Shown piece by piece: positions 2,388-16,868 of a DNA stretch of 16,868 nt (position 1 is its first letter; each line of letters starts with the position of its first letter). The notes beneath the pieces were generated by a model. It made no database searches. It saw only the letters and a program-made list of their open reading frames with translations, and was not told the origin of the DNA. The stretch lies in IMG/VR virus record IMGVR_UViG_2671180804_000001; one strand, 5' to 3'. Position numbers and translations under genes: made by a program. Source of the DNA: a virus. Lineage: Duplodnaviria; Heunggongvirae; Uroviricota; Caudoviricetes.

Positions 2388-3212
2388 ATGGGTATGCCAT
2401 TGCGTGAGTATTATCCTATAACTCGAGCGGCTAGTTTATTAGGATATGAAACGAATGATCTTTTACACTGGGCCTCTACTGGTTCAATACGATTATTCAT
2501 TAATTTCGACGTAACCAACATAACAAAAGGGTATGTTGTATTCACAGATGAAGGCCTTTCTTTGAGAACGAAATTAATTGAAAAAGGTATCGTTTCTGAT
2601 TGGTTTTCGAGGGTTTATAATTTAAAAAATATTAGGGATATTAACAGCCCAGACCCTAAAATAAATTATGATGGGAGTGAGCTTATTTTAAAGGATGCAT
2701 TGGAATGTGGGTTTAGTGGCTTTTGGCAACTACCTAAAACATTCTTTGGATTGACCGAGCTTTATGATATTCATCCTCAATTCTTCCAGGTGTGGATGTC
2801 AGTATCGAACAAGATGATAGTTAACTTTAATAGTGAGGAACCTATTGATTTTGATTTGGCTGATATTTATCTCATGAAAAATGACTTTATCATGTTAAGA
2901 GATAGTAGAGATGGTGAGTCATTACCTAGTTTTTATAATGGCGGTGTATTACCTCCTGACACTGAAGTTTCAACAGTCGCACTAAATCCAGGGAGGGCAG
3001 AACATCATGCAAAAAAGAGAGAGGAAGTATTAAAAGCTGCCATTTATATTAAACATTGCCACCCCGAACTGTGTAACAATTATACTAACTGGGCTAATGC
3101 TATTAGTGACCATGCTCATAAGTTTTGGCGCAGTGGTGAAGCACCCTTATCAATTAAAACTATTGCAGCATTAATTGGTGAGGCTCATAGGCTACCAACA
3201 CCATCATCGTAA
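2388..3212 (+). CDS. Hypothetical protein, AT-rich cargo gene
   Basis: 274-aa ORF with a GAGGGTGA RBS upstream. A sampled 60-nt stretch (2581..2640) is about 27% G+C against about 62% sampled in the primase gene. No Walker A or other motif recognised by eye. Confidence 0.6.
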   Translation: MGMPLREYYPITRAASLLGYETNDLLHWASTGSIRLFINFDVTNITKGYVVFTDEGLSLRTKLIEKGIVSDWFSRVYNLKNIRDINSPDPKINYDGSELILKDALECGFSGFWQLPKTFFGLTELYDIHPQFFQVWMSVSNKMIVNFNSEEPIDFDLADIYLMKNDFIMLRDSRDGESLPSFYNGGVLPPDTEVSTVALNPGRAEHHAKKREEVLKAAIYIKHCHPELCNNYTNWANAISDHAHKFWRSGEAPLSIKTIAALIGEAHRLPTPSS

Positions 3213-3352
3213 GCCGGTTCCCGAGTTAGCCTAATGCCTCCCCGAGTTATGCTAACTCGGGTTTCAATACAAAGAAATATGCATCAAGATTCTCCAAACA
3301 ACGCCAGAACAGATAGGAAGTGTTCCTTCTGAGAGCGTTAACTGGAGGGTTT

Positions 3353-3637
3353 ATGCTAAATACTGTTTTCATCCCACCAACGGCTGAGCAGCGCCGCCAA
3401 ATTCTTAGGGACTACGGATTTGAATATGACCGACGTATTCGTGAGGCCGAATGCTTGGAAATAACTAGTCTTTCCCGCTCTACCCGCTGGAATATGGAAA
3501 ATGATAGTAAGTTTCCCACCCGCTGCCACTTTGGGCGTAACAGCTGCGCATGGCTCCTATCTGACATTCTTTGGTGGGTTCGTAATCCGCCTTCAGTGTT
3601 AAACGTAAATAATCCGCACAGCCGCAAGTCTGCATAA
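3353..3637 (+). CDS. alpA: AlpA-family phage regulatory protein (HTH, Xis-like)
   Basis: The segment ECLEITSLSRSTRWNMENDSKFPTRCHFGRNSCAWLLSDILWWV fits the AlpA pattern (HTH with SRST..., then GRxxxW and a W-containing helix). The ORF track starts at GTG 3320; I prefer ATG 3353 because GGAGGG lies 5 nt upstream. Confidence 0.7.
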   Translation: MLNTVFIPPTAEQRRQILRDYGFEYDRRIREAECLEITSLSRSTRWNMENDSKFPTRCHFGRNSCAWLLSDILWWVRNPPSVLNVNNPHSRKSA

Positions 3638-6481: not shown

Positions 6482-6843
6482 CCGATATTTTTGAAGTGAT
6501 AGGCCCATTGTTCCGCAAACTGACCGAAACATGTATTGCTCACCAGATAGCGGAAACCGGTTCGGCAACCTTGCTGGTGGAAAGCGATAAGTATATGGCC
6601 CGCTATCGCTTCACGCTGGAGCCGCGCGTAACTGAAAACGTATTGATGAAATATATGATTTTTGGCTGTTTTGAAGAATTCGGGCGCGATGAGGGGTTAA
6701 GGCGTTTGCGGGATATTCTGCTGACCTGCTTTACCGACGATGGCGATATTAACGAAATGGGGTTGCAGATAGTGAAAAGCTGCCACCTTGAATACCTGCA
6801 TGAAGATTTGGAAGCGGATCTTTCCAATAAGGTGCTGCACTGA
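6478..6843 (+). CDS. Hypothetical protein
   Basis: 121 aa. GGAGG RBS; ATGA overlap with the upstream gene and TGATG overlap with the downstream primase gene. Confidence 0.5.
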   Translation: MTDIFEVIGPLFRKLTETCIAHQIAETGSATLLVESDKYMARYRFTLEPRVTENVLMKYMIFGCFEEFGRDEGLRRLRDILLTCFTDDGDINEMGLQIVKSCHLEYLHEDLEADLSNKVLH

Positions 6844-8975
6844 TGAAGATGAAAAACGCCCCAAACATTAAGTGTCTGCCAAAGGACAAGTTTACTGAGG
6901 CGATTATTTTTGCGGGGGAAGATGCTTATTCACACGCGCAGCACTGGATCGAGAGCGAGGGGAAAAGGGCGGGGGATGATGTGCCGCCTGTGTATCTGGG
7001 GAAAAAGCAGCTGGAGGAGCTTGAAAGGCTGAATATCATCGATCAGGGGCGTCGTTGCGTACGCGTGATTAGAGCTGGCGAGCTTTCCGAAATGCAGATA
7101 AGCACTATCGCAACCAAACTGGCGCTGGCGGATGTGAAAGAGGCCCGGCTGTTTAATGGCATGTTTGAGCCTCAGCCGAAGGAGAACTGGACGGATGTAC
7201 TTCCACGGCTCAGGGAAGATGCCGAGCGTGGGGAAAGTATTGTGGTAAATCTGCCTGTGAAAAAAAGGGAGCCAAAGCCTGAACCGGGTGATGAACTGAA
7301 ACCCCGCGTAGAGAGCCGTAACGATGGCCTGTACTGGATCACGCCAAAGGTGGATAAGGACAGCGGAGAAATAATCAATAACGAAACGTGGATGTGTTCG
7401 CCGCTTGAGGTGGTGGGGTCCGGTAGTGACGGGGCCGAGCGCTATCTCGTTTTGCGCTGGCGTTCGCCACGTGGCCATGAAGATATTACCAGGGCGATCC
7501 CCTGTGCTGATATCGGTGAGCGTGACGGCTGGCGCTATCTAAAGGCTGGTGGGGTAAACGTAACGACTAAAAGTACATTCCGGGCAATTCTTGCCGACTG
7601 GCTACAGCAATGTGGTGCAGGGCAGGAATGGATTATTAGCCATACCACCGGCTGGCATCACGGCGCATACATCATGCCAGATGGTGAAGTTATCGGTGAT
7701 CCGGAAATGCCTATTCTCTTTAACGGTCGCAGCGCTGCATCTTCCGGTTATGCCGTGGCTGGAACTGCTGAGAGTTGGCGGGATTCAGTGGCATATCTGG
7801 CAGGAGGCAACCCATCGATGATGCTGGGTGTGGCTGCGGCATTGTCTGCGCCGCTGATCGGGCTGGTGGGCGCTGATGGCTTCGGCGTCCATTTGTTCGA
7901 ACAGTCCAGCGCCGGTAAGACTACCACCGCAAATATTGCGAGCAGTATTTGGGGCGAGCCCGACGCTTTGAGGTTGACCTGGTACGGTACCGCGCTTGGT
8001 ATTGCTAACGAGGCAGAGGCGCATAACGACAGCCTGTTACCACTTGATGAGGTAGGGCAGGGCAGCAGTGCTAAAGATGTCGCCACGTCTGCTTACACTT
8101 TGTTTAACGGGGCTGGGAAGTTGCAGGGGGCTAAAGAGGGTGGCAACCGGGAGCTAAAGCGCTGGCGAACTGTTGCGATCAGTACCGGGGAAATGGATAT
8201 TGAAACATTCCTGGCTGCTGGTGGAATTAGGGTGAAAGCTGGGCAGCTGGTGCGCCTGCTGAATATCCCCATGGAGAAATCCACGGCCTTTAACGGGCTG
8301 GCTAACGGAAAGGCCCACGCCGATGCACTGAAAGAGTCATGGATTGATAACCACGGCGCAGCAGGGCGTGAGTGGGTAAAATGGCTGGCAACCCACCAGC
8401 AGGAGGCTAAACAGGCTGTGCGGGATGCGCAGACGCGCTGGCGCAGTCTTATTCCGGCTGATTATGGTGAACAGGTTCATCGTGTGGCTGAGCGCTTCGC
8501 CATTCTTGAGGCTGCGCTGGTAACTGGTTCGCCGATAACTGGCTGGAGTGAACAAGCCAGCCGGGATGCTATTCAGCATAGCTTCAATGCCTGGGTAAAA
8601 GAATTCGGAACAGGTAACAAGGAGCACCAGCAGATCATCGAGCAGTGCGAGGCCTTTCTGAACGCGCATGGTATGAGCCGCTATGCTCCGCTGCCATACT
8701 GCCCGTCAGATATGCCAATTCGTGATATGGCTGGATACCGCGAAAGGGGCAAGCATGATGATTCGCCGATGGTGTTTTATACCTTCCCTTCTGCGTTCGA
8801 AAAAGAGATAGCGCAGGGGTTCAATGCGAAGCAGTTCGCCAGAGTTCTGTCTGAATCTGGAATGTTGACACCCCCAGCAAGCGGCAGGGGATACCAGCGG
8901 AAATCACCGCGTATCGATGGGCGTCAGATTAATGTTTACGTCATTCAGTACCAGCAGGAGGGAACCGAAGAATAA
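6843..8975 (+). CDS. Replication initiator, primase/helicase-like protein (P4 alpha-like role)
   Basis: 710 aa, last gene of the coupled operon and immediately upstream of the iteron array. Contains a P-loop-like motif (LFEQSSAGKTTTAN). Resembles satellite/prophage primase-helicase proteins of the DUF927 type; that assignment is from memory, not a search. Confidence 0.75.
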   Translation: MKMKNAPNIKCLPKDKFTEAIIFAGEDAYSHAQHWIESEGKRAGDDVPPVYLGKKQLEELERLNIIDQGRRCVRVIRAGELSEMQISTIATKLALADVKEARLFNGMFEPQPKENWTDVLPRLREDAERGESIVVNLPVKKREPKPEPGDELKPRVESRNDGLYWITPKVDKDSGEIINNETWMCSPLEVVGSGSDGAERYLVLRWRSPRGHEDITRAIPCADIGERDGWRYLKAGGVNVTTKSTFRAILADWLQQCGAGQEWIISHTTGWHHGAYIMPDGEVIGDPEMPILFNGRSAASSGYAVAGTAESWRDSVAYLAGGNPSMMLGVAAALSAPLIGLVGADGFGVHLFEQSSAGKTTTANIASSIWGEPDALRLTWYGTALGIANEAEAHNDSLLPLDEVGQGSSAKDVATSAYTLFNGAGKLQGAKEGGNRELKRWRTVAISTGEMDIETFLAAGGIRVKAGQLVRLLNIPMEKSTAFNGLANGKAHADALKESWIDNHGAAGREWVKWLATHQQEAKQAVRDAQTRWRSLIPADYGEQVHRVAERFAILEAALVTGSPITGWSEQASRDAIQHSFNAWVKEFGTGNKEHQQIIEQCEAFLNAHGMSRYAPLPYCPSDMPIRDMAGYRERGKHDDSPMVFYTFPSAFEKEIAQGFNAKQFARVLSESGMLTPPASGRGYQRKSPRIDGRQINVYVIQYQQEGTEE

Positions 8976-8995
8976 TTACACGTGAGGTTTATTTT

Positions 8996-9284
8996 GTTGG
9001 TTCAGTTGGTTCAGTAGGTAGTGTGTATCGTTATCGTGGTGTTTATATTGATTATTTTACACAGAAACTGAACCAACACTGAACCAACAAATGACTGTTT
9101 TGAACCAACAAGCGGGGGATTTGAACCAACATACCTACCCTGCCCGAATAAGTGTTTTTACTGAACCAACATAAAAACGGCGTTGTTGGTTCAAAACGGG
9201 GCTTTGTTGGTTCACTAAATAAAAATAAGTCTTTTAAAAACAATGTTCTTTACAAATTGAACCAACTGAACCAACTGAACCAAC
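8996..9284. repeat. Iteron array, putative origin of replication
   Basis: 12 exact copies of the 9-mer TGAACCAAC / GTTGGTTCA. Forward copies start at 9069, 9080, 9101, 9122, 9162, 9258, 9267, 9276; reverse copies at 8996, 9005, 9185, 9206. The array begins about 20 bp after the primase stop. Confidence 0.75.
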
Positions 9285-9321
9285 ATAGTTTTGTTTATAT
9301 ACGCAGAAAATGAGGTGAAAA

Positions 9322-10353: not shown

Positions 10354-10710
10354 ATGCAAAGACTGGTTGAAATTAAAAAACGCCTTGAATTAATCGAAGA
10401 AGCATTAAATGAACAGTATCCAAATTATAAATCAGACCCTGAGATTACAGCACAAATTACAGAATTGAAAGGACATGTACAAGACGCTCGTAAAATAATA
10501 CAAAAAAAGAAATCCCTGGGTGAACTATCAGACTTTGAAATAGCATTTATCGAACCAGCTATTAATGATGTTTACTTAACCTCGATCGATAAAATTCGTC
10601 GTGGAGCCAAACCTAGCCCTAGCGTGAGTGAACATATATACGATACGTCTGTGACTTTGGATCATTGGTTGGGCGAAATTGGTAGGTTTAAATCCAATCA
10701 GAATGGTTAA
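10354..10710 (+). CDS. Hypothetical protein, gene 1 of the AT-rich cargo operon
   Basis: 118 aa, charged and predicted helical. A sampled stretch (10381..10440) is about 33% G+C. No recognisable motif. Confidence 0.55.
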   Translation: MQRLVEIKKRLELIEEALNEQYPNYKSDPEITAQITELKGHVQDARKIIQKKKSLGELSDFEIAFIEPAINDVYLTSIDKIRRGAKPSPSVSEHIYDTSVTLDHWLGEIGRFKSNQNG

Positions 10711-10761
10711 AGCGATTTGTAATGTTTTGATTTTTGTAAGGGTGGAATTCGGAGGGGAGAA

Positions 10762-11664
10762 ATGGTAGCAAGCGTATCAACTAAGGAAAATTTGCCTAAG
10801 CTGGAGACAACCTTTCATGTCAAAGCGAATGGTTCAAGTATAAATATCAAACTTGGTGCTTTAGAGTTTAATCATGTCTTATCTCCATGTGAAAAATATT
10901 TATATGTTCAACTTTGTAACTCAACGTCTGAGGACTCAGGTAAATTCATTAAATTAGATGTAACTACTGGACGTAAAATTTATTCGGTAGGGCCTGAGTG
11001 GGGATGGGCCAGAGGCTATACATTTAATCATGATGGAAATATTTGTGTTGAGACAGATCACTATGGTACCTGGTTAGTTAATGATGATGGAGGTATTTCA
11101 GACCGCGCTGATTACTATATGCGCCGCGTGAAGACTGCTGATTATGGAACGATGAGAGCTTTGCCTAATTTTTTTGAGTTGCATGGGAAAACACCTGAAA
11201 CATGTGCCGAGGCGATGGAGGCTCTTGAACGATTTTTGAGTACATGTTCATCCATGTTCCATGGATTGTCGTATGGTGCTCTGGCATTAAAATCACGTGC
11301 TGAGATTCAAGCCTTTTTGGGTGATAACTCAGGGGCACTACAGAGTTGCGTTGATGCTTTATGCCTTGACCCAAAAGTTACAGTTAAACGAATGCTGAAT
11401 TCACTTAGTAAAAAACTTAATCTTGATAAAGACACTTTAAAACCTTCCGATTGGGTTGAGTCGCTAAAAGTTGATATAGAAGCCAATCGTAATATTGAAA
11501 TCAATAAGATTGAAGAAAATCGCAATCAGATAAAAGATAAGGATGTGATTGTTGTCAGTGACATGAAAATTATGAATAAAGAACCACATGCTAAAAATAA
11601 CATCATGAAATATTTTTTGCTGATAGTGGTCTTAGTGGCAGCATTAGTTGCTCTCTTCAAATGA
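10762..11664 (+). CDS. Hypothetical membrane-anchored protein, gene 2 of the AT-rich cargo operon
   Basis: 300 aa with strong GGAGGGGAG RBS. Single hydrophobic helix at the extreme C-terminus (YFLLIVVLVAALVALF); the rest looks soluble. AT-rich. Confidence 0.6.
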   Translation: MVASVSTKENLPKLETTFHVKANGSSINIKLGALEFNHVLSPCEKYLYVQLCNSTSEDSGKFIKLDVTTGRKIYSVGPEWGWARGYTFNHDGNICVETDHYGTWLVNDDGGISDRADYYMRRVKTADYGTMRALPNFFELHGKTPETCAEAMEALERFLSTCSSMFHGLSYGALALKSRAEIQAFLGDNSGALQSCVDALCLDPKVTVKRMLNSLSKKLNLDKDTLKPSDWVESLKVDIEANRNIEINKIEENRNQIKDKDVIVVSDMKIMNKEPHAKNNIMKYFLLIVVLVAALVALFK

Positions 11665-11702
11665 TATTCATATAGGTGATTAATAATCATAAGGTTTAGT
11701 TT

Positions 11703-12224
11703 ATGCAGGAGCTAACGATACAGTTTGCCAAAGATTTACACAGTGTGTTTCAAAGCAATCGCAATAAATTAGATAAGATAGGAATACCATTTTTTTATAG
11801 TTTTCCGACAAATGCATGCCAGGGCGCATCTGTGTATCTTAGCTTATTTTTTACGTGGCTTGTGCCAGAGGCTACTGTCAGAGTTGTTAAAGGAAGTCAT
11901 AGAACGCTGGATCATCATCACTACTGGGTCGAACTTGATGGGAAGGTGTTTGATTTGACAAATGCTCAGTTCGAATCCTGGTTGGGAGAAAGGTATCCTG
12001 AGCTGGACTCTCCTGTATATGCTCAAAGAAAGCATCCTCTTCGTAATTATTTTTTTTATAAAGAAAGAGAGTCGGCCATCCGTGCTTATGCAACATTCTG
12101 TAGCGAGCATGCGAACGTAAAAGATGTAGACAAGGCGCAATGGTTTGTTATGGGGAAACTCAGAGAAATGGGCTGGGAACTTGAGCAGAACATCGCTGGT
12201 GGCCGATTGATAAAAATAAGATAG
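11703..12224 (+). CDS. Hypothetical protein, gene 3 of the AT-rich cargo operon
   Basis: 173 aa. Contains a conserved-looking Cys (TNACQGAS) and a His cluster (LDHHHYWVELDG) that could form a Cys/His catalytic pair; this is speculative. AT-rich. Confidence 0.55.
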   Translation: MQELTIQFAKDLHSVFQSNRNKLDKIGIPFFYSFPTNACQGASVYLSLFFTWLVPEATVRVVKGSHRTLDHHHYWVELDGKVFDLTNAQFESWLGERYPELDSPVYAQRKHPLRNYFFYKERESAIRAYATFCSEHANVKDVDKAQWFVMGKLREMGWELEQNIAGGRLIKIR

Positions 12225-12249
12225 CCAGTTACCACCACTGATAGCGATT

Positions 12250-12274
12250 GGCGATGTTGTTACATCGCCTTTTT
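12250..12274 (+). terminator. Rho-independent terminator closing the AT-rich operon
   Basis: Perfect 8-bp stem GGCGATGT / ACATCGCC with a 4-nt loop, followed by TTTTT. Confidence 0.6.
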
Positions 12275-12366
12275 CATATCATTATCGTTTCATTTTATGC
12301 AATAAATGTATTGATCGTTTCATAATCAGCAACTACAATCACTGTATAAACATCAGGGGGGGTGGT

Positions 12367-12543
12367 ATGAACAAGAAGCAAAACTCACAAGTAGTGCTAC
12401 TGACGCGTGGTCAGGTTGAAGCTTTGCAACGCATTCAGGAAGAGGAGCGTAAACGTTCTGAATTTGGCATACAGCCATCAATCCATGAAATCGCACGCAA
12501 GCTGGTGGATAAGGCGCTGAGCTATCACGGAGGTGCTTTCTGA
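12367..12543 (+). CDS. Small putative DNA-binding protein (RHH-like), absent from the supplied ORF track
   Basis: 58-aa ORF translated by hand: MNKKQNSQVVLLTRGQVEALQRIQEEERKRSEFGIQPSIHEIARKLVDKALSYHGGAF. GGGGGTGG RBS upstream. Its stop overlaps the next start as TGATG. It falls below the apparent length cut-off of the ORF track. Confidence 0.45.
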   Translation: MNKKQNSQVVLLTRGQVEALQRIQEEERKRSEFGIQPSIHEIARKLVDKALSYHGGAF

Positions 12544-13379
12544 TGGCAAAAGTATCGTTAACAGCACTCCTTGGATTTACTGGTGGCGCAAATAACGTCC
12601 GCAATTCCCAAAAGCCAACACTTCGACAGCGGGAAAAATCCATGAGCAAAAAAGAGCGTAGCTTTGCACATCTTGATGCTGCGGCTACTCAAACGATTGT
12701 GGTGCAGGACCAGCAGCAAACCCAGACTCTGAAACCAGCCGGTTCTTACCGTATTTCCAGTCAGCATAGCCGGGGGCATAACGTTGCAATATCAGAGGAA
12801 GGGAAGAATAGCCCTGTCCTGGCGGTTAAGCTGTTACGTGAAACGAAACTAAGCTCCAGTAAAATCCGTGCTCGCCTTCGGGAAGAGCCTGCGGCTTTAT
12901 CAAAGTTCACGGCTAATTTCATGGAAGAAAATATGCCAGGCTGGGAATTTCTCAACGATGAGGAAAAATCCAGAACTGCCATGCAGCTATCCATTCGCGA
13001 TAATGATCAGAACGGTTATCACGCTTCCCGGAATCGTGCATCTCAAACGCTTAAATCGCTTGAAGAACCACTTACTGATGATGAAAAGCAGGCGATGCTC
13101 GAAAATCTTCGTCTGGACCAAAATGCTTCCGATCCTGATACCCCGGATAATGTTGCGGCCCGAAAACAAGCTGACGATGAATATCAGGAGCAGGTTGCCA
13201 GGGCTATTGTTGCCAGAAACAATCAAATGCGTTCCACCGGTGTGTTCTTGCCAGGCGATACCCGTACAGCTGGTGGTAAGCCCTCCGCACCTCGAAATGA
13301 GTTGCAGATGATTAAGTCTGGTCTTAAATCCGGGGCTATTGTGGTTTCTCAGCCCTCAAATGGAGAAATTCATCCATGA
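12543..13379 (+). CDS. Hypothetical protein, long paralogue of the following gene
   Basis: 278 aa with GGAGGTG RBS 7 nt upstream; coupled to the small ORF upstream. Shares a domain of about 100 aa with the next gene. Confidence 0.5.
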   Translation: MAKVSLTALLGFTGGANNVRNSQKPTLRQREKSMSKKERSFAHLDAAATQTIVVQDQQQTQTLKPAGSYRISSQHSRGHNVAISEEGKNSPVLAVKLLRETKLSSSKIRARLREEPAALSKFTANFMEENMPGWEFLNDEEKSRTAMQLSIRDNDQNGYHASRNRASQTLKSLEEPLTDDEKQAMLENLRLDQNASDPDTPDNVAARKQADDEYQEQVARAIVARNNQMRSTGVFLPGDTRTAGGKPSAPRNELQMIKSGLKSGAIVVSQPSNGEIHP

Positions 13380-13825
13380 CTTTCAGCCACCTGAATAACA
13401 GTCCCATGGCTGTGGCAGGTGGCCTTTGGGCCTCTGTCACCCCGATAACAAATGATGTCACTACGATGTCAGCGCATGCAGAGGCCCACTATATTGCGAG
13501 CAGCGAACCAGCTAAACACAACCCCATACTTGCTCTCCGTCTTATTGAACAGGGCATACCTCACCAGAAAGCAATCAGTGTGCTGGAGAAGTCCCCGCGA
13601 GCGCTAAGCAATTATACCGTTCGGAAAATGGAACGTTTCTGCCCCGGCTGGGAGCTGATGACTGAAGAAATGCAGAATATGGAGGCGTATCTCCATAGTG
13701 TCAGAACCAGCGATGGAAATGGATATCTGGCTTGTATGAACGCGGCCACAGCGGCATTAAATAAATTTATAGAGCCGGTAACGGCTGAAGACTTTATCCT
13801 GGTGGGAGATAGTGCTGATGTCTAA
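13376..13825 (+). CDS. Hypothetical protein, short paralogue of the preceding gene
   Basis: 149 aa; ATGA overlap with the upstream gene. RKMERFCPGWELMTEE...DGNGYLA aligns with NFMEENMPGWEFLNDE...DQNGYHA in the preceding protein. Confidence 0.5.
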   Translation: MTFSHLNNSPMAVAGGLWASVTPITNDVTTMSAHAEAHYIASSEPAKHNPILALRLIEQGIPHQKAISVLEKSPRALSNYTVRKMERFCPGWELMTEEMQNMEAYLHSVRTSDGNGYLACMNAATAALNKFIEPVTAEDFILVGDSADV

Positions 13826-14228
13826 TTCATTTGATTTTGAGCTGGTGGCTGACGATAAGGTCAGTGGTGCAATTGAGCGTATTAATGAATCACTGAATGA
13901 CTTGCAGCCGAAGCTGGATAAAACCAGAACGGGGCTGCAATTCGGTGGGCAGGAAACACTGGATGGTTTGAACGGGTATAACTCTCGCCTTGAGCTGATG
14001 GCCCAAAGCGCCAGAGATAATGTGCAGTATATCGGTAATATGGTCCCACCATTAAAATGGTTGGGGATATCTCCGGAAAGCTGGAGAAAATGGCGAAGAT
14101 TGGCCTTGTCGGTGGTGCTATTGGTGGTGTTGCCTACGCAACTGGAAAACTGGCTGAAAGCTACCGGGAAGCATCGCGTGAGGCCTATAACCTTGACGTA
14201 TCGTCTAAAAATGCCGGAATGCGGGTAG
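13818..14228 (+). CDS. N-terminal fragment of a frameshift-interrupted gene
   Basis: ATG 13818 with GGGAG RBS. Translation looks protein-like up to about 14040. After that the frame gives W/R-rich sequence, while the -1 frame (ORF 14057..14878) opens at 14039 and looks protein-like. Confidence 0.4.
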   Translation: MSNSFDFELVADDKVSGAIERINESLNDLQPKLDKTRTGLQFGGQETLDGLNGYNSRLELMAQSARDNVQYIGNMVPPLKWLGISPESWRKWRRLALSVVLLVVLPTQLENWLKATGKHRVRPITLTYRLKMPECG

Positions 14229-14878
14229 ACGACTTCTCTCGCCTTGCTGGTGCGTTGCAGTTTGTCGGCGCTGATAGTGAGAGCGCCAGTTCGTCTATTG
14301 AGGGATTTGCGAAGGCGCTGAAGGAGGCAAGTAGCGGCAGCAATCAGGGCATGATGGCGGCATTTGCGACAATTGGTGTGCAGATACAGAAAAATAAAGA
14401 CGGGTCTGTTGATACGCTAAAAACGTTACAGGAAATTGCGAGAATTTTCCCTAAATACCGCTCGGAACAACAGAAGTCAATCGCTGACAGTCTTGGTCTG
14501 ACACCTGAAATGCTGGCGTTAATGCGTGAGGGGGCGCGAATGAAAACCCTTCTGGCAAAAGCCGATAAAGTTGGACTGACAGTCGATCCCACGCTCAATC
14601 AGCAACTGACGGACTTTAACTCTGCAATAAACGAGGTCAGTGCCTCATGGGATGGCTTTAAGTCTAAAGTCGAGCGTAAAATTTACTCGCACCTTGATAA
14701 TAACGGCATAACAGATACTGTACGTGGCGCATCTGATATGCTTGAGAACAACTTTGACAATATCTCAATTGGTCGCTTCTCGGGACAAAACAAAGGGGAT
14801 GATTCTGCATTAATGCGCCGAGCATTGCGCGACCCTGAGTTTATCAAACAGCTCGATGGGAATGAAAAAACCAGCTGA
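14057..14878 (+). CDS. Central segment of the interrupted gene
   Basis: 273-aa ORF in the -1 frame relative to 13818. No RBS at its own ATG, so it is more likely a continuation than an independent gene. The helical, Ala/Leu-rich composition loosely resembles the N-terminal part of tape-measure-like proteins; this is my impression only. Confidence 0.5.
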   Translation: MVGDISGKLEKMAKIGLVGGAIGGVAYATGKLAESYREASREAYNLDVSSKNAGMRVDDFSRLAGALQFVGADSESASSSIEGFAKALKEASSGSNQGMMAAFATIGVQIQKNKDGSVDTLKTLQEIARIFPKYRSEQQKSIADSLGLTPEMLALMREGARMKTLLAKADKVGLTVDPTLNQQLTDFNSAINEVSASWDGFKSKVERKIYSHLDNNGITDTVRGASDMLENNFDNISIGRFSGQNKGDDSALMRRALRDPEFIKQLDGNEKTS

Positions 14879-14889
14879 CTGCTGGCGTT

Positions 14890-15642
14890 ATGACTGATCA
14901 GGCGAGAAATAAATACCGCAGACATTATTATAACCAGGACAGGGCACAACAATTACTGGACGATATGTCCGCCATTACCCGCCCTCAGGCTCCAGGTAGA
15001 AATAATGTGCCATATAACCAAGGGGGTCAGTATGATTCTATTTTTAGCGATGCTGGCAAAAAATGGGGCGTCGACCCGCGTCTACTCAAAGCCATTATGA
15101 TGCAAGAATCTGGTGGCAATCCTAATGCTATTAGTGACGCTGATGCTCGTGGGTTAATGCAGATAATCCCCCCGAACTTCAAAGCCACCGGGATAACGGA
15201 CTGGAAAGACCCAAACCAGAATATTAATGCTGGAGCACAAATTTTATCCGAAAACTTACAGAGGTCAGGTGGCGACGTACCTCTGGCGCTTCGATATTAC
15301 CACGGAGGATATGACCGCCGTCGATGGGGGCCAAAAAATCAGGCTTATCCATATGCGGTCCTCGATAATTACCAGCAAATTATTAAAGGTGAAGCCCGCC
15401 AACGTGACGGCTTTCCAGATATCCCCATTAATGGGCAATCTGCAGGTTCAGGAATTTTGCAGCCAATTCAGAATGGGAGCCGTAGTGAAAGTACGCTCAC
15501 TGATAACCTGGCTCGTTCGCTTAAAGAGGCAATGTCCGATCAGACGCTGAAGCTTGAAATCACCATGGTCAATGATAAGGGTGAACGTAAGACCTACAAC
15601 GTTGAGAATAATGGACGGATCACCACGCCAATGAATTATTGA
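14890..15642 (+). CDS. Lytic transglycosylase (SLT) domain protein, C-terminal segment of the interrupted gene
   Basis: 250 aa. Family-1 lytic transglycosylase motifs are present: MMQESGGNPNA (catalytic Glu-Ser), GLMQI, and a downstream YYHGG block. Its frame is open from 14866 and overlaps the stop of the preceding ORF at an A6 homopolymer. Confidence 0.7.
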   Translation: MTDQARNKYRRHYYNQDRAQQLLDDMSAITRPQAPGRNNVPYNQGGQYDSIFSDAGKKWGVDPRLLKAIMMQESGGNPNAISDADARGLMQIIPPNFKATGITDWKDPNQNINAGAQILSENLQRSGGDVPLALRYYHGGYDRRRWGPKNQAYPYAVLDNYQQIIKGEARQRDGFPDIPINGQSAGSGILQPIQNGSRSESTLTDNLARSLKEAMSDQTLKLEITMVNDKGERKTYNVENNGRITTPMNY

Positions 15643-15755
15643 TACCGACAGGCACTCAGGAGGTGACCGTATATAAAAATGGGTCCTTCCTGAGACTTTT
15701 GTAAGGCACGGGCATTGCGCGCCGCAGTGTTTTCCTAGCTACAGGTTTTGAATTT

Positions 15756-15961
15756 GATTGACACTTTACACTAAGGTTTTTCCGGTTGCTGGGTTGTTAA
15801 CTCCCTTGAGCGGCAAGGGATTACCGGGAATAACCGCCGATCCTGATTGACAGTCAGATTGACACTTTCTGCCTGAAAAGTGTCAACCGGACAGAAAAAG
15901 TGTCAAGTAGCTGGCGCTTTACAGTTTGATTGACAGTTTCCCGCTGGTGGGTTGACACATT
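15756..15961. promoter_or_regulatory. Cluster of TTGACA(C/G)TTT repeats upstream of the TerS-like gene
   Basis: Copies at 15756..15767, 15845..15854, 15857..15868, 15928..15939 and 15952..15961 (forward) and 15877..15886 and 15897..15906 (reverse). The pair 15857..15868 / 15877..15886 forms an inverted repeat around a short spacer. Confidence 0.45.
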
Positions 15962-15994
15962 GCCTGCCAATGACAATTACCCAGGAGAAAAAAT

Positions 15995-16582
15995 ATGTCA
16001 CTGATGAGTGTGAGTCAGTACGCTAAACACGCAGGGCTAAGTCGTCAGGCCCTTTACAACTGGGAGGCTAAGCAAGGTTTCCCCGCACGAGTGGACGGCA
16101 AGATTGACCAACTGGCCTGTGATGCTTATCTAGCCCGGTATCGTAGTAGCAGTGACCCGCGTACAAAGAATGCAAAGAGCAAGCCCATATCGGCTAGGGA
16201 GGTAAAGTCGATGGGGCGTGAACCGGTAGATATGAGTGTGACCGAGATAAAGCGCATTATGGCTGGCGACGCTAACAAAGCGGCCGGAATGGTCCTAGAA
16301 GAGCATGCTCAACTAGCTGCACAAGCAGTGGGCCTGTTTTTGAGTAAAGGGCCGAATAATCCCCCTGTCACATTTGGTGGTTACCGCTTGTCGATTGTTG
16401 AAACGCCAGATCATGAAGTTGGGCAGATCATTGCTGGTGGTGCGTTCGGCCTGTCTGCTGACGATGTAATTTTTGAATGCCGGGATTACACCCTGGCACT
16501 AATGAGTGATGAGACCGAAGAAACAGCCATGCGGAGGGTTACTCCTTCGCTACTGTACGCCCTGGCCGACTACAACCACTAA
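15995..16582 (+). CDS. HTH-domain protein, terminase small subunit-like (possible packaging protein)
   Basis: 195 aa with GGAG RBS. The N-terminal HTH (VSQYAKHAGLSRQALYNWEAKQGFP) is similar in pattern to the lambda Nu1-type TerS DNA-binding motif, as I recall it. Confidence 0.5.
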   Translation: MSLMSVSQYAKHAGLSRQALYNWEAKQGFPARVDGKIDQLACDAYLARYRSSSDPRTKNAKSKPISAREVKSMGREPVDMSVTEIKRIMAGDANKAAGMVLEEHAQLAAQAVGLFLSKGPNNPPVTFGGYRLSIVETPDHEVGQIIAGGAFGLSADDVIFECRDYTLALMSDETEETAMRRVTPSLLYALADYNH

Positions 16583-16610
16583 AGCAAAGTGTGCCTGCAG
16601 GCTCCTGTTT

Positions 16611-16634
16611 GCCAGCCTCCGGGCTGGTTTTTTT
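16611..16634 (+). terminator. Rho-independent terminator
   Basis: CCAGCC - tccg - GGCTGG stem-loop followed by TTTTTTT, about 30 bp after the TerS-like stop. Confidence 0.65.
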
Positions 16635-16676
16635 GCGTTATTGCTCCATGAGTTCGGATCACAAAAGGATACTATC

Positions 16677-16868
16677 ATGTTGAAACAGGCAAAAATCGAG
16701 GCTGTGATTGAAGAATTGGCACGCCAGCAGGGGCACGAGCTTAATGCCGCCGATATGCTGGAGATTCGTTGCCGTGTGGCCTGTACGCTAGCGGCCAAAG
16801 AACGGCACCGCTGGCGCATGACAGCACCCGAATACCGATGGCGCAAGCCTGATAAATTACGCCGTTGA
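16677..16868 (+). CDS. Hypothetical small protein
   Basis: 63 aa from ATG 16677 with AAGGA upstream. The ORF track starts at 16506, but that upstream part runs through the terminator. The TGA stop is the last three bases of the window. Confidence 0.45.
   Translation: MLKQAKIEAVIEELARQQGHELNAADMLEIRCRVACTLAAKERHRWRMTAPEYRWRKPDKLRR

Follow-up and report, generated by a model that had tools for sequence, protein, structure and literature searches.

We examined a 16,868-bp stretch of DNA (here, the window) deposited as IMG/VR virus record IMGVR_UViG_2671180804_000001 and assigned to the Caudoviricetes. Its genes mark the window as a phage satellite of the Gram-negative phage-inducible chromosomal island (PICI) type. 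Near its right end, a cluster of short repeats (15756-15961) lies between a cos-like core (15680-15743) and the gene for a 195-residue protein that resembles a small terminase subunit (TerS). Our reading, to which we give a probability of roughly 0.8, is that the satellite is packaged by a lambda-like cos helper phage and that the array is a satellite-specific, multisite cosB read by the satellite's own TerS-like protein. Packaging is predicted to be of the cos type, not the pac type. An earlier note on the window, written without database searches (the sequence-only reading), had suggested a packaging recognition site of the satellite as one meaning of the repeats; the adjoining shared cosQ/cosN and the covariation of repeat and protein helix described below sharpen that suggestion to a cosB.

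The motif TTGACASTTT has five exact matches in the window, all of them within 15756-15961 (15758, 15859, and 15930 on the plus strand; 15877 and 15897 on the minus strand). In 200 shuffles of the window, the mean was 0.11 matches, and none of the shuffles reached five. The whole window has 13 TTGACA hexamers, and 7 of these lie in 15758-15957. A wider search with the 12-mer GATTGACACTTT, in which mismatches were allowed, gave seven sites of the GATTGACAC type, of which five are forward and two are reverse. The repeat unit is about 12 bp long (GATTGACACTTT). S1 (15756-15767, plus strand) and S3 (15857-15868, plus strand) are exact copies of this 12-mer; S3 is invariant in relatives, and S1, the equivalent of lambda R3, is invariant in the class-G relatives defined below. 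S2 (15845-15856, plus strand) reads GATTGACAGTCA, where relatives read GATTGACAGTTT. S4 (15877-15888), the inverted partner of S3, and S5 (15897-15908) read GGTTGACACTTT and ACTTGACACTTT, respectively, on the minus strand, and S6 (15928-15939) and S7 (15950-15961) read GATTGACAGTTT and GGTTGACACATT, respectively, on the plus strand. The motif scan thus bore out the arrangement given in the sequence-only reading, with five forward and two reversed copies and an inverted pair (S3/S4). That reading had also counted seven copies of TTGACA(C/G)TTT; there are indeed seven sites, but only five match this core exactly, and two forward copies (S2 and S7) keep the TTGACA(C/G) core without the TTT tail.

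We aligned the cos regions of 15 class-G (TTGACA) and 9 class-C (TTCACA) relatives, which together represent 24 distinct satellite cos regions. In these alignments, the repeats form invariant blocks and the spacers vary. The arms of the S3/S4 pair, for instance, are conserved, and the 8-nt spacer between them is variable. A hairpin formed by S3 and S4 was considered as the main explanation of the array and rejected, because nonpalindromic direct copies switch from G to C along with the arms. From the alignment of relatives, the ancestral array had about 10 sites, and decay has since removed three of these from the window (near 15768-15781, 15887-15894, and 15909-15927); the first of these is the ancestral second site and falls in the spacer between S1 and S2. 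This spacer (15768-15844) is poorly conserved in sequence and nearly constant in length, measuring 78 to 81 bp in 21 of the 27 loci in which it was measured. The leader before S1 (15744-15755, plus strand) is the satellite-family sequence GGTTTTGAATTT. Across both satellite classes, TTTTGAATTT hardly varies, and a phage (L153) has it too.

The cos core upstream of the leader (15680-15743, plus strand) runs from cosQ through cosN to a GTTTTCCTAGCTACA box and is common to lambda-like, helper-type prophages. Its cosQ-like heptamer, GGGTCCT (15681-15687, plus strand), is invariant in all 24 satellite cos regions and in the helper prophages. Lambda has an identical heptamer, which begins 30 nt ahead of bp 1. 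To obtain cos coordinates, the lambda ends were retrieved and aligned to the window, in which CGCAGTGTTTTCCTAGCTA, a lambda-like GTTTTC..CTA box, matches lambda bp 13-27 (CGCGGGTTTTCGCTA). Based on this match and on the lambda cosQ-to-nick distance of 30 nt, cosN is predicted at 15709-15724 (CGGGCATTGCGCGCCG, plus strand). By the same analogy, bp 1 would lie near 15711, and the 12-nt cohesive end would span approximately 15711-15722 (about GGCATTGCGCGC), give or take 1 to 2 nt. As in a lambda-type cos, cosQ stands at the lambda distance and the repeats lie between the predicted cosN and the TerS-like gene. Counted from the predicted cohesive end, the first of them, the TTGACAC core of S1, is at about bp 48 to 54; R3 occupies bp 50-65 in lambda and bp 48-60 in N15 (PMC9026076).

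We used megablast to compare 15400-16868 with complete Escherichia coli genomes and found four satellite relatives. About 55 further genomes matched only 15675-15756, at ∼94% identity and in unannotated DNA. The prophage copies of the cos core lie directly upstream of TerS-TerL-gpW-portal genes (TerL being the large terminase subunit). In E. coli MIN9, for instance, the cos element is located between the lysis genes and a TerS-like gene, which is followed by a GpA-type large terminase, gpW, and the portal; lambda-like phages have their cos at this location. When IMG/VR was scanned for exact copies of the cosN core ACGGGCATTGCGCGCCG, at least 120 stretches were recovered, most of them from 40- to 47-kb phage contigs. 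In prophages and IMG/VR phage contigs alike, this cosN core precedes TerS and TerL genes, the latter with GpA_ATPase/GpA_nuclease domains. The DNA of 15640-15995 had no match in the GenBank phage collection, and prophages and IMG/VR contigs are the sole known sources of the helper lineage.

Identity between satellite and phage stops at CTAGCTACA (15743), the cosN/cosB border. Beyond this point, the satellite has GATTGACAC sites and the phage has eight copies of (A)TGTCCCA in a parallel layout, with two at the R3 position, a gap of ∼70 bp, and then six up to the TerS start codon. Among the IMG/VR phages with the cosN core (L030-L149), every TerS helix type comes with a heptamer array of its own. 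TGTCCCA (6 to 9 copies) pairs with VDRKTIGRW and TGTTACC (6 to 10 copies) with VSRKTVTMW; GTTCGCA and GCGGACA are rarer classes. Written in a common orientation, all heptamer classes consist of TGT followed by four variable bases; for the satellite sites, the other strand gives TGTCAAT and TGTGAAT. The matching of cosB classes to TerS helices suggests that the helpers themselves have a modular system of specificity. In one strain, E. coli 1368KP (GCF_057812635.1), the cos cores of the satellite (L001 12009-12072) and of a prophage (L152 2501-2566) are identical (64 of 64 positions). Both have a private GAGCC in place of GAGAC, and the two sequences diverge immediately after the core. The shared variant hints at gene conversion or at recent coadaptation of satellite and helper. 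In this candidate helper prophage, TerS is encoded at L152 2725-3294 and TerL at L152 3236-5359.

The repeat type also tracks the TerS-like protein within the satellites. We collected loci that encode relatives of the 195-residue protein (18 from genomes and 9 from IMG/VR) and counted hexamers in the 340 bp upstream of the gene. All 17 loci with the helix SRQALY have 6 to 10 copies of TTGACA and no TTCACA. All 11 loci with SRR(A/S)FY have TTCACA, in 5 to 8 copies with 0 to 1 TTGACA; the exception in copy number is L010, a 687-bp contig with just 37 bp upstream of the gene and one TTCACA copy. Helix and repeat type therefore agree in 28 of 28 satellite loci from ∼12 genera. On a tree built from residue 30 to the end of the 195-residue protein family, the class changes at least four times, and the association therefore does not rest on one inherited event.

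A third state is provided by P0118, a true phage TerS that combines a satellite-type DNA-binding domain with a normal TerS C terminus and is followed by a GpA TerL. Its helix is SRTAFY, and in its cos GGGTCCT is accompanied by a variant cosN and TTTGAAATTTGATTTACACTTTACAC (TTTACAC at S1). Thus, the third base of TT[N]ACAC is G, C, or T according to whether residue 18 is Q, R, or T, respectively; an arginine opposite a C:G pair would fit ordinary arginine-guanine recognition. The P0118 lineage is a likely source of the satellite DNA-binding domain and cosB module. At the P0118 locus (L153 2220-2490; gene, 2487-3068), the cosB mixes TTTACAC with TTGACA and TTAACAC sites. Further, Brenneria-type satellites (L019 and L029) have a TTGACAC cosB and SRQALY but a different cosN, CACGGGCTGGGCGACGCCCCG, which suggests that the module of cosB and DNA-binding domain has been joined there to a cosN from another helper group.

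The presumed reader of the array is encoded at 15995-16582 on the plus strand, and its gene is followed by an intrinsic-terminator-like hairpin with a T run (16611-16638, plus strand). The AlphaFold model of the 195-residue protein (predicted local distance difference test score [pLDDT], 76.5) has an N-terminal winged helix-turn-helix (wHTH; residues 1 to ∼60), a disordered linker (∼60 to 74), and a separate, uncharacterized alpha/beta domain (78 to 195). The N terminus matches PHROG 57 (terminase small subunit; E value, 2.7e-9), and residues 1 to 85 are 41% identical to the N terminus of the prophage TerS (E value, 5e-14). In a profile-profile comparison (hhalign) of the family with 68 helper TerS sequences, the match had a probability of 99.6% and was confident only over residues 1 to ∼60. 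A weak alignment to the TerS C terminus in the full-length comparison was rejected as homology, as it disappeared when the C-terminal halves were compared alone (probability, 0.1 to 0.2%). The gene that the sequence-only reading had called TerS-like is, then, a homologue of the TerS DNA-binding domain and not a full TerS, its C-terminal half being unrelated. The C-terminal domain has no structural match in the PDB; it is strongly conserved (for instance, PPVTFGGYRL and AGGAFGL) and has a predicted fold with a pLDDT of ∼70 to 90.

The family has 118 database members, all from Enterobacterales and all annotated as hypothetical, the closest of which is from Citrobacter braakii (98% identity). The protein had no match among 50,697 GenBank phage records; the prophage TerS, unlike it, matches annotated terS genes. 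Pfam, NCBIfam, and PADLOC gave nothing informative for the 195-residue protein or for the open reading frames (ORFs) at 10354-13825. The next ORF after the gene encodes 63 residues (PHROG 7271) and is not a large terminase, and domain searches of the other ORFs in the window found no terminase domain and no large-terminase, portal, or capsid domain.

In known Gram-negative PICIs, helper-like cosQ and cosN are combined with a different cosB, and a wHTH protein encoded next to cos, Rpp, pairs with the helper TerS (PMC6739421; PMC9026076). The present system shares this logic with the Rpp/cos-PICIs of E. coli (EcCICFT073 and relatives), in that a helper-like cosQ/cosN, a nonhelper cosB, and an adjacent gene for a TerS-like wHTH protein occur together. 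The DNA-binding domain of the 195-residue protein is homologous and structurally similar to TerS and RppC. However, sequence searches of all PDB chains (phmmer and hmmsearch, with 6HLK and 6HN7 in the library) returned no Nu1 hit and no Rpp hit at an E value of ≤10, so that no sequence relation to RppA, RppB, or RppC was found. The two systems differ in other respects as well. The protein here has 195 residues, with the extra uncharacterized C-terminal domain, and the Rpps have 135 to 153; the start codon is at about bp 285 here and at about bp 102 in the Rpp system; and the cosB here has 7 to 10 sites over ∼205 bp, compared with one proposed R3. Moreover, cosN is GGCATTGCGCGC-like here and is lambda's GGGCGGCGACCT in the Rpp system, and therefore the helper group differs.

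The likeness to lambda cos and gpNu1 extends from GGGTCCT, 30 nt before the end, and a G/C-rich cosN followed by GTTTTC..CTA to a first R site at about bp 48-65, the presence of forward and reverse R sites between cosN and the small-subunit gene, and a wHTH reader. In contrast to the R3-I1-R2-R1 order of lambda, with three 16-bp R sequences, there are 7 to 10 short sites here; the integration host factor (IHF) consensus went undetected in the window, the reader does not have the C-terminal half of Nu1, and no TerL gene follows. Like the TerS of the Staphylococcus aureus pathogenicity islands (SaPIs), which are pac-type PICIs, the protein would be a small-terminase-like product of the satellite that provides it with a packaging specificity of its own while the TerL of the helper is used. 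The SaPI TerS is a complete pac-type small terminase whose gene contains the pac site. The present system differs in being of the cos type, in having an external repeat array, and in retaining just the DNA-binding domain of TerS.

We propose the following mechanism. The core at 15680-15743 would be a copy of the helper cosQ/cosN that the helper large terminase can nick, and 15756-15961 would replace the helper cosB with seven R-type sites (ancestrally about 10) for the winged-helix domain of the 195-residue protein. Bound at S1, in the position of lambda R3, and at the distal cluster, this protein would anchor the helper terminase at the satellite cosN, with the constant ∼80-bp spacer between S1 and the distal cluster probably looping or bending. 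As a result, satellite concatemers would be selected for packaging instead of helper DNA.

How the protein would engage the helper terminase can be pictured in two ways, and we lean, by a little, toward an Rpp-like adaptor that pairs with the helper TerS over direct capture of TerL. The adaptor is favored because the C terminus is unlike the TerL-binding part of TerS, while residues 1 to 60 (and the helix after the wing) are close to the helper TerS. The other possibility is an autonomous replacement for the small terminase that binds the array, recruits the helper TerL through its novel C-terminal domain, and makes the helper TerS dispensable, much as SaPI TerS does. The length of the protein, which is comparable to that of the helper TerS (187 residues) and unlike that of the Rpps (135 to 153 residues), would suit such a role, as would the strong conservation and predicted folding of the C-terminal domain and the clear descent of the DNA-binding domain from a true phage TerS lineage (P0118). 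We nevertheless consider it rather unlikely, given that the C-terminal half has neither similarity to TerS nor a structural match in the PDB. The N-terminal 60 residues form the dimer interface in lambda TerS and in Rpp, and the 41% identity to the helper TerS in this part of the protein is what would be expected if heterodimerization matters.

Several points weigh against the interpretation of the array as a cosB that directs a helper terminase to the satellite. The whole analysis is computational, and we infer the nick positions, the binding, and the recruitment of TerL. The position of the cohesive end is taken from the lambda analogy, and two-fold symmetry at the predicted cosN is weak. 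A lambda-like prophage with this cos is present in three of the four E. coli genomes that have the satellite relative, compared with ∼60 of 5,426 overall; this co-residence is supportive, not decisive, as the three strains may be clonally related. The best match to the IHF consensus in the S1-S2 spacer of the window has three mismatches and was equaled in 286 of 300 shuffles. Because no IHF site is detectable in the spacer, the proposed bend is unsupported in this window; Yersinia-type relatives have a one-mismatch IHF match there. Profile-profile comparison detected no TerL-binding or oligomerization region of TerS in the 195-residue protein, and with no sequence match to Rpp either, the link to the helper terminase is conjecture. 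Lastly, the wHTH fold is also found in AlpA, Xis, and MerR regulators.

The breadth of this fold bears on the alternative that the array is a cluster of operators or promoters, bound by the wHTH protein or by a late activator of the helper and controlling the downstream gene or genes. The hexamer TTGACA equals the sigma-70 -35 consensus, 34 bp separate the end of the array from the ATG, MerR and AlpA regulators share the fold, and autoregulation could occur as a secondary effect of binding. However, there are no promoter-like sites in 15600-16700, and none of the seven TTGACA copies has a -10 partner. The sites occur in both orientations, the first of them 230 bp upstream of the gene and at the R3 distance from cosN. 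The TTCACA class, a poorer -35, is equally conserved, and real phages have the same layout before TerS-TerL with unrelated heptamers. We therefore regard transcriptional control as an improbable primary function. The operator array for late-gene activation that the sequence-only reading had put forward as its other possibility is not supported by these observations; its more general view, that of a multisite protein-binding array and not a single promoter, is supported by the covariation of the repeats with the helix and by the lack of promoter-like sites.

Still less probable is that the repeats are sites for a recombination directionality factor near an attachment site, with the wHTH protein as Xis. 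The TerS matches of the protein are stronger than its excisionase matches, and the array abuts a cos core, not an att core. The integrase is encoded at the opposite end, the element already has an AlpA (3320-3637), and in the E. coli relative the island runs ∼2 kb past the array before reaching hpt. We give almost no weight to the idea that the repeats are iterons of the satellite replication origin. Dense, noncoding direct and inverted repeats do resemble PICI origins, but the window has a separate and typical origin, and the TTGACAC array covaries with the helix of the TerS-like protein and not with the replicase. This very likely origin (8987-9296) is an iteron array of at least 14 copies of TGAACCAAC(A) in both orientations around an AT-rich stretch, directly after the gene for the DUF927 primase/helicase (6843-8975).

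The remainder of the window fits the PICI type. An integrase (1159-2295), AlpA, the primase with its iteron origin, and the size class (about 10 to 16 kb) are present, and there are no capsid or TerL genes; the IMG/VR relatives are contigs of 11 to 18 kb. To the left of the integrase, on the minus strand, is a gene for an N6/N4 DNA methylase (1-891), which may belong either to the island or to the flanking chromosome. An AntA-domain protein is also encoded. The only Rfam match in the window, located after the integrase gene and ahead of the next ORF, is an int-alpA RNA (RF02996; 2304-2371; 60.8 bits); no Rfam family matched the array region. Two overlapping ORFs (13812-14228 and 14057-14878) are tape-measure-like fragments that match successive parts of PHROG 2276; a frameshift or a pseudogene may account for them. 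They are followed by a gene for an SLT lytic transglycosylase (14890-15642). This tape-measure/SLT cargo (13812-15642) is unusual in an element that otherwise lacks tail genes. Raoultella relatives have kept the end of the SLT gene upstream of cos, and the E. coli relative has not. The 63-residue ORF (16677-16868; PHROG 7271, of unknown function; E value, 6e-28), at whose stop codon the window ends, follows the TerS-like gene in the E. coli relative too.

It is possible, and we suggest it tentatively, that the satellite proteins constitute a second family of redirectors, independent of Rpp, in which the DNA-binding domain of a P0118-like phage TerS has been fused to a new C-terminal domain and specificity follows a one-position code. 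If so, residue 18 and the third base of TT[N]ACAC would largely set specificity, and satellites and phages that share one cosN would fall into packaging address classes that exclude one another. Should the C-terminal domain capture TerL directly, the protein would be the first small-terminase substitute in a cos-type satellite.

How cos-type small terminases recognize R sites is still poorly defined, and lambda TerS binds weakly and nonspecifically in vitro (PMC6739421). The family described here is a natural specificity series, in which a single cosN is shared and at least five heptamer classes each go with a helix variant of their own. The series includes a switch of one residue and one base that has occurred no fewer than four times, and it opens the recognition code to direct tests by paired swaps of sites and residues. 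More broadly, the PICI strategy of keeping the helper cosN and replacing cosB is extended here to another helper group and to a protein family annotated as hypothetical. As this family occurs in Citrobacter, Klebsiella, Escherichia, Serratia, Yersinia, Pectobacterium, and Morganella, its recognition would improve the annotation of satellites and the prediction of their helpers in these hosts.
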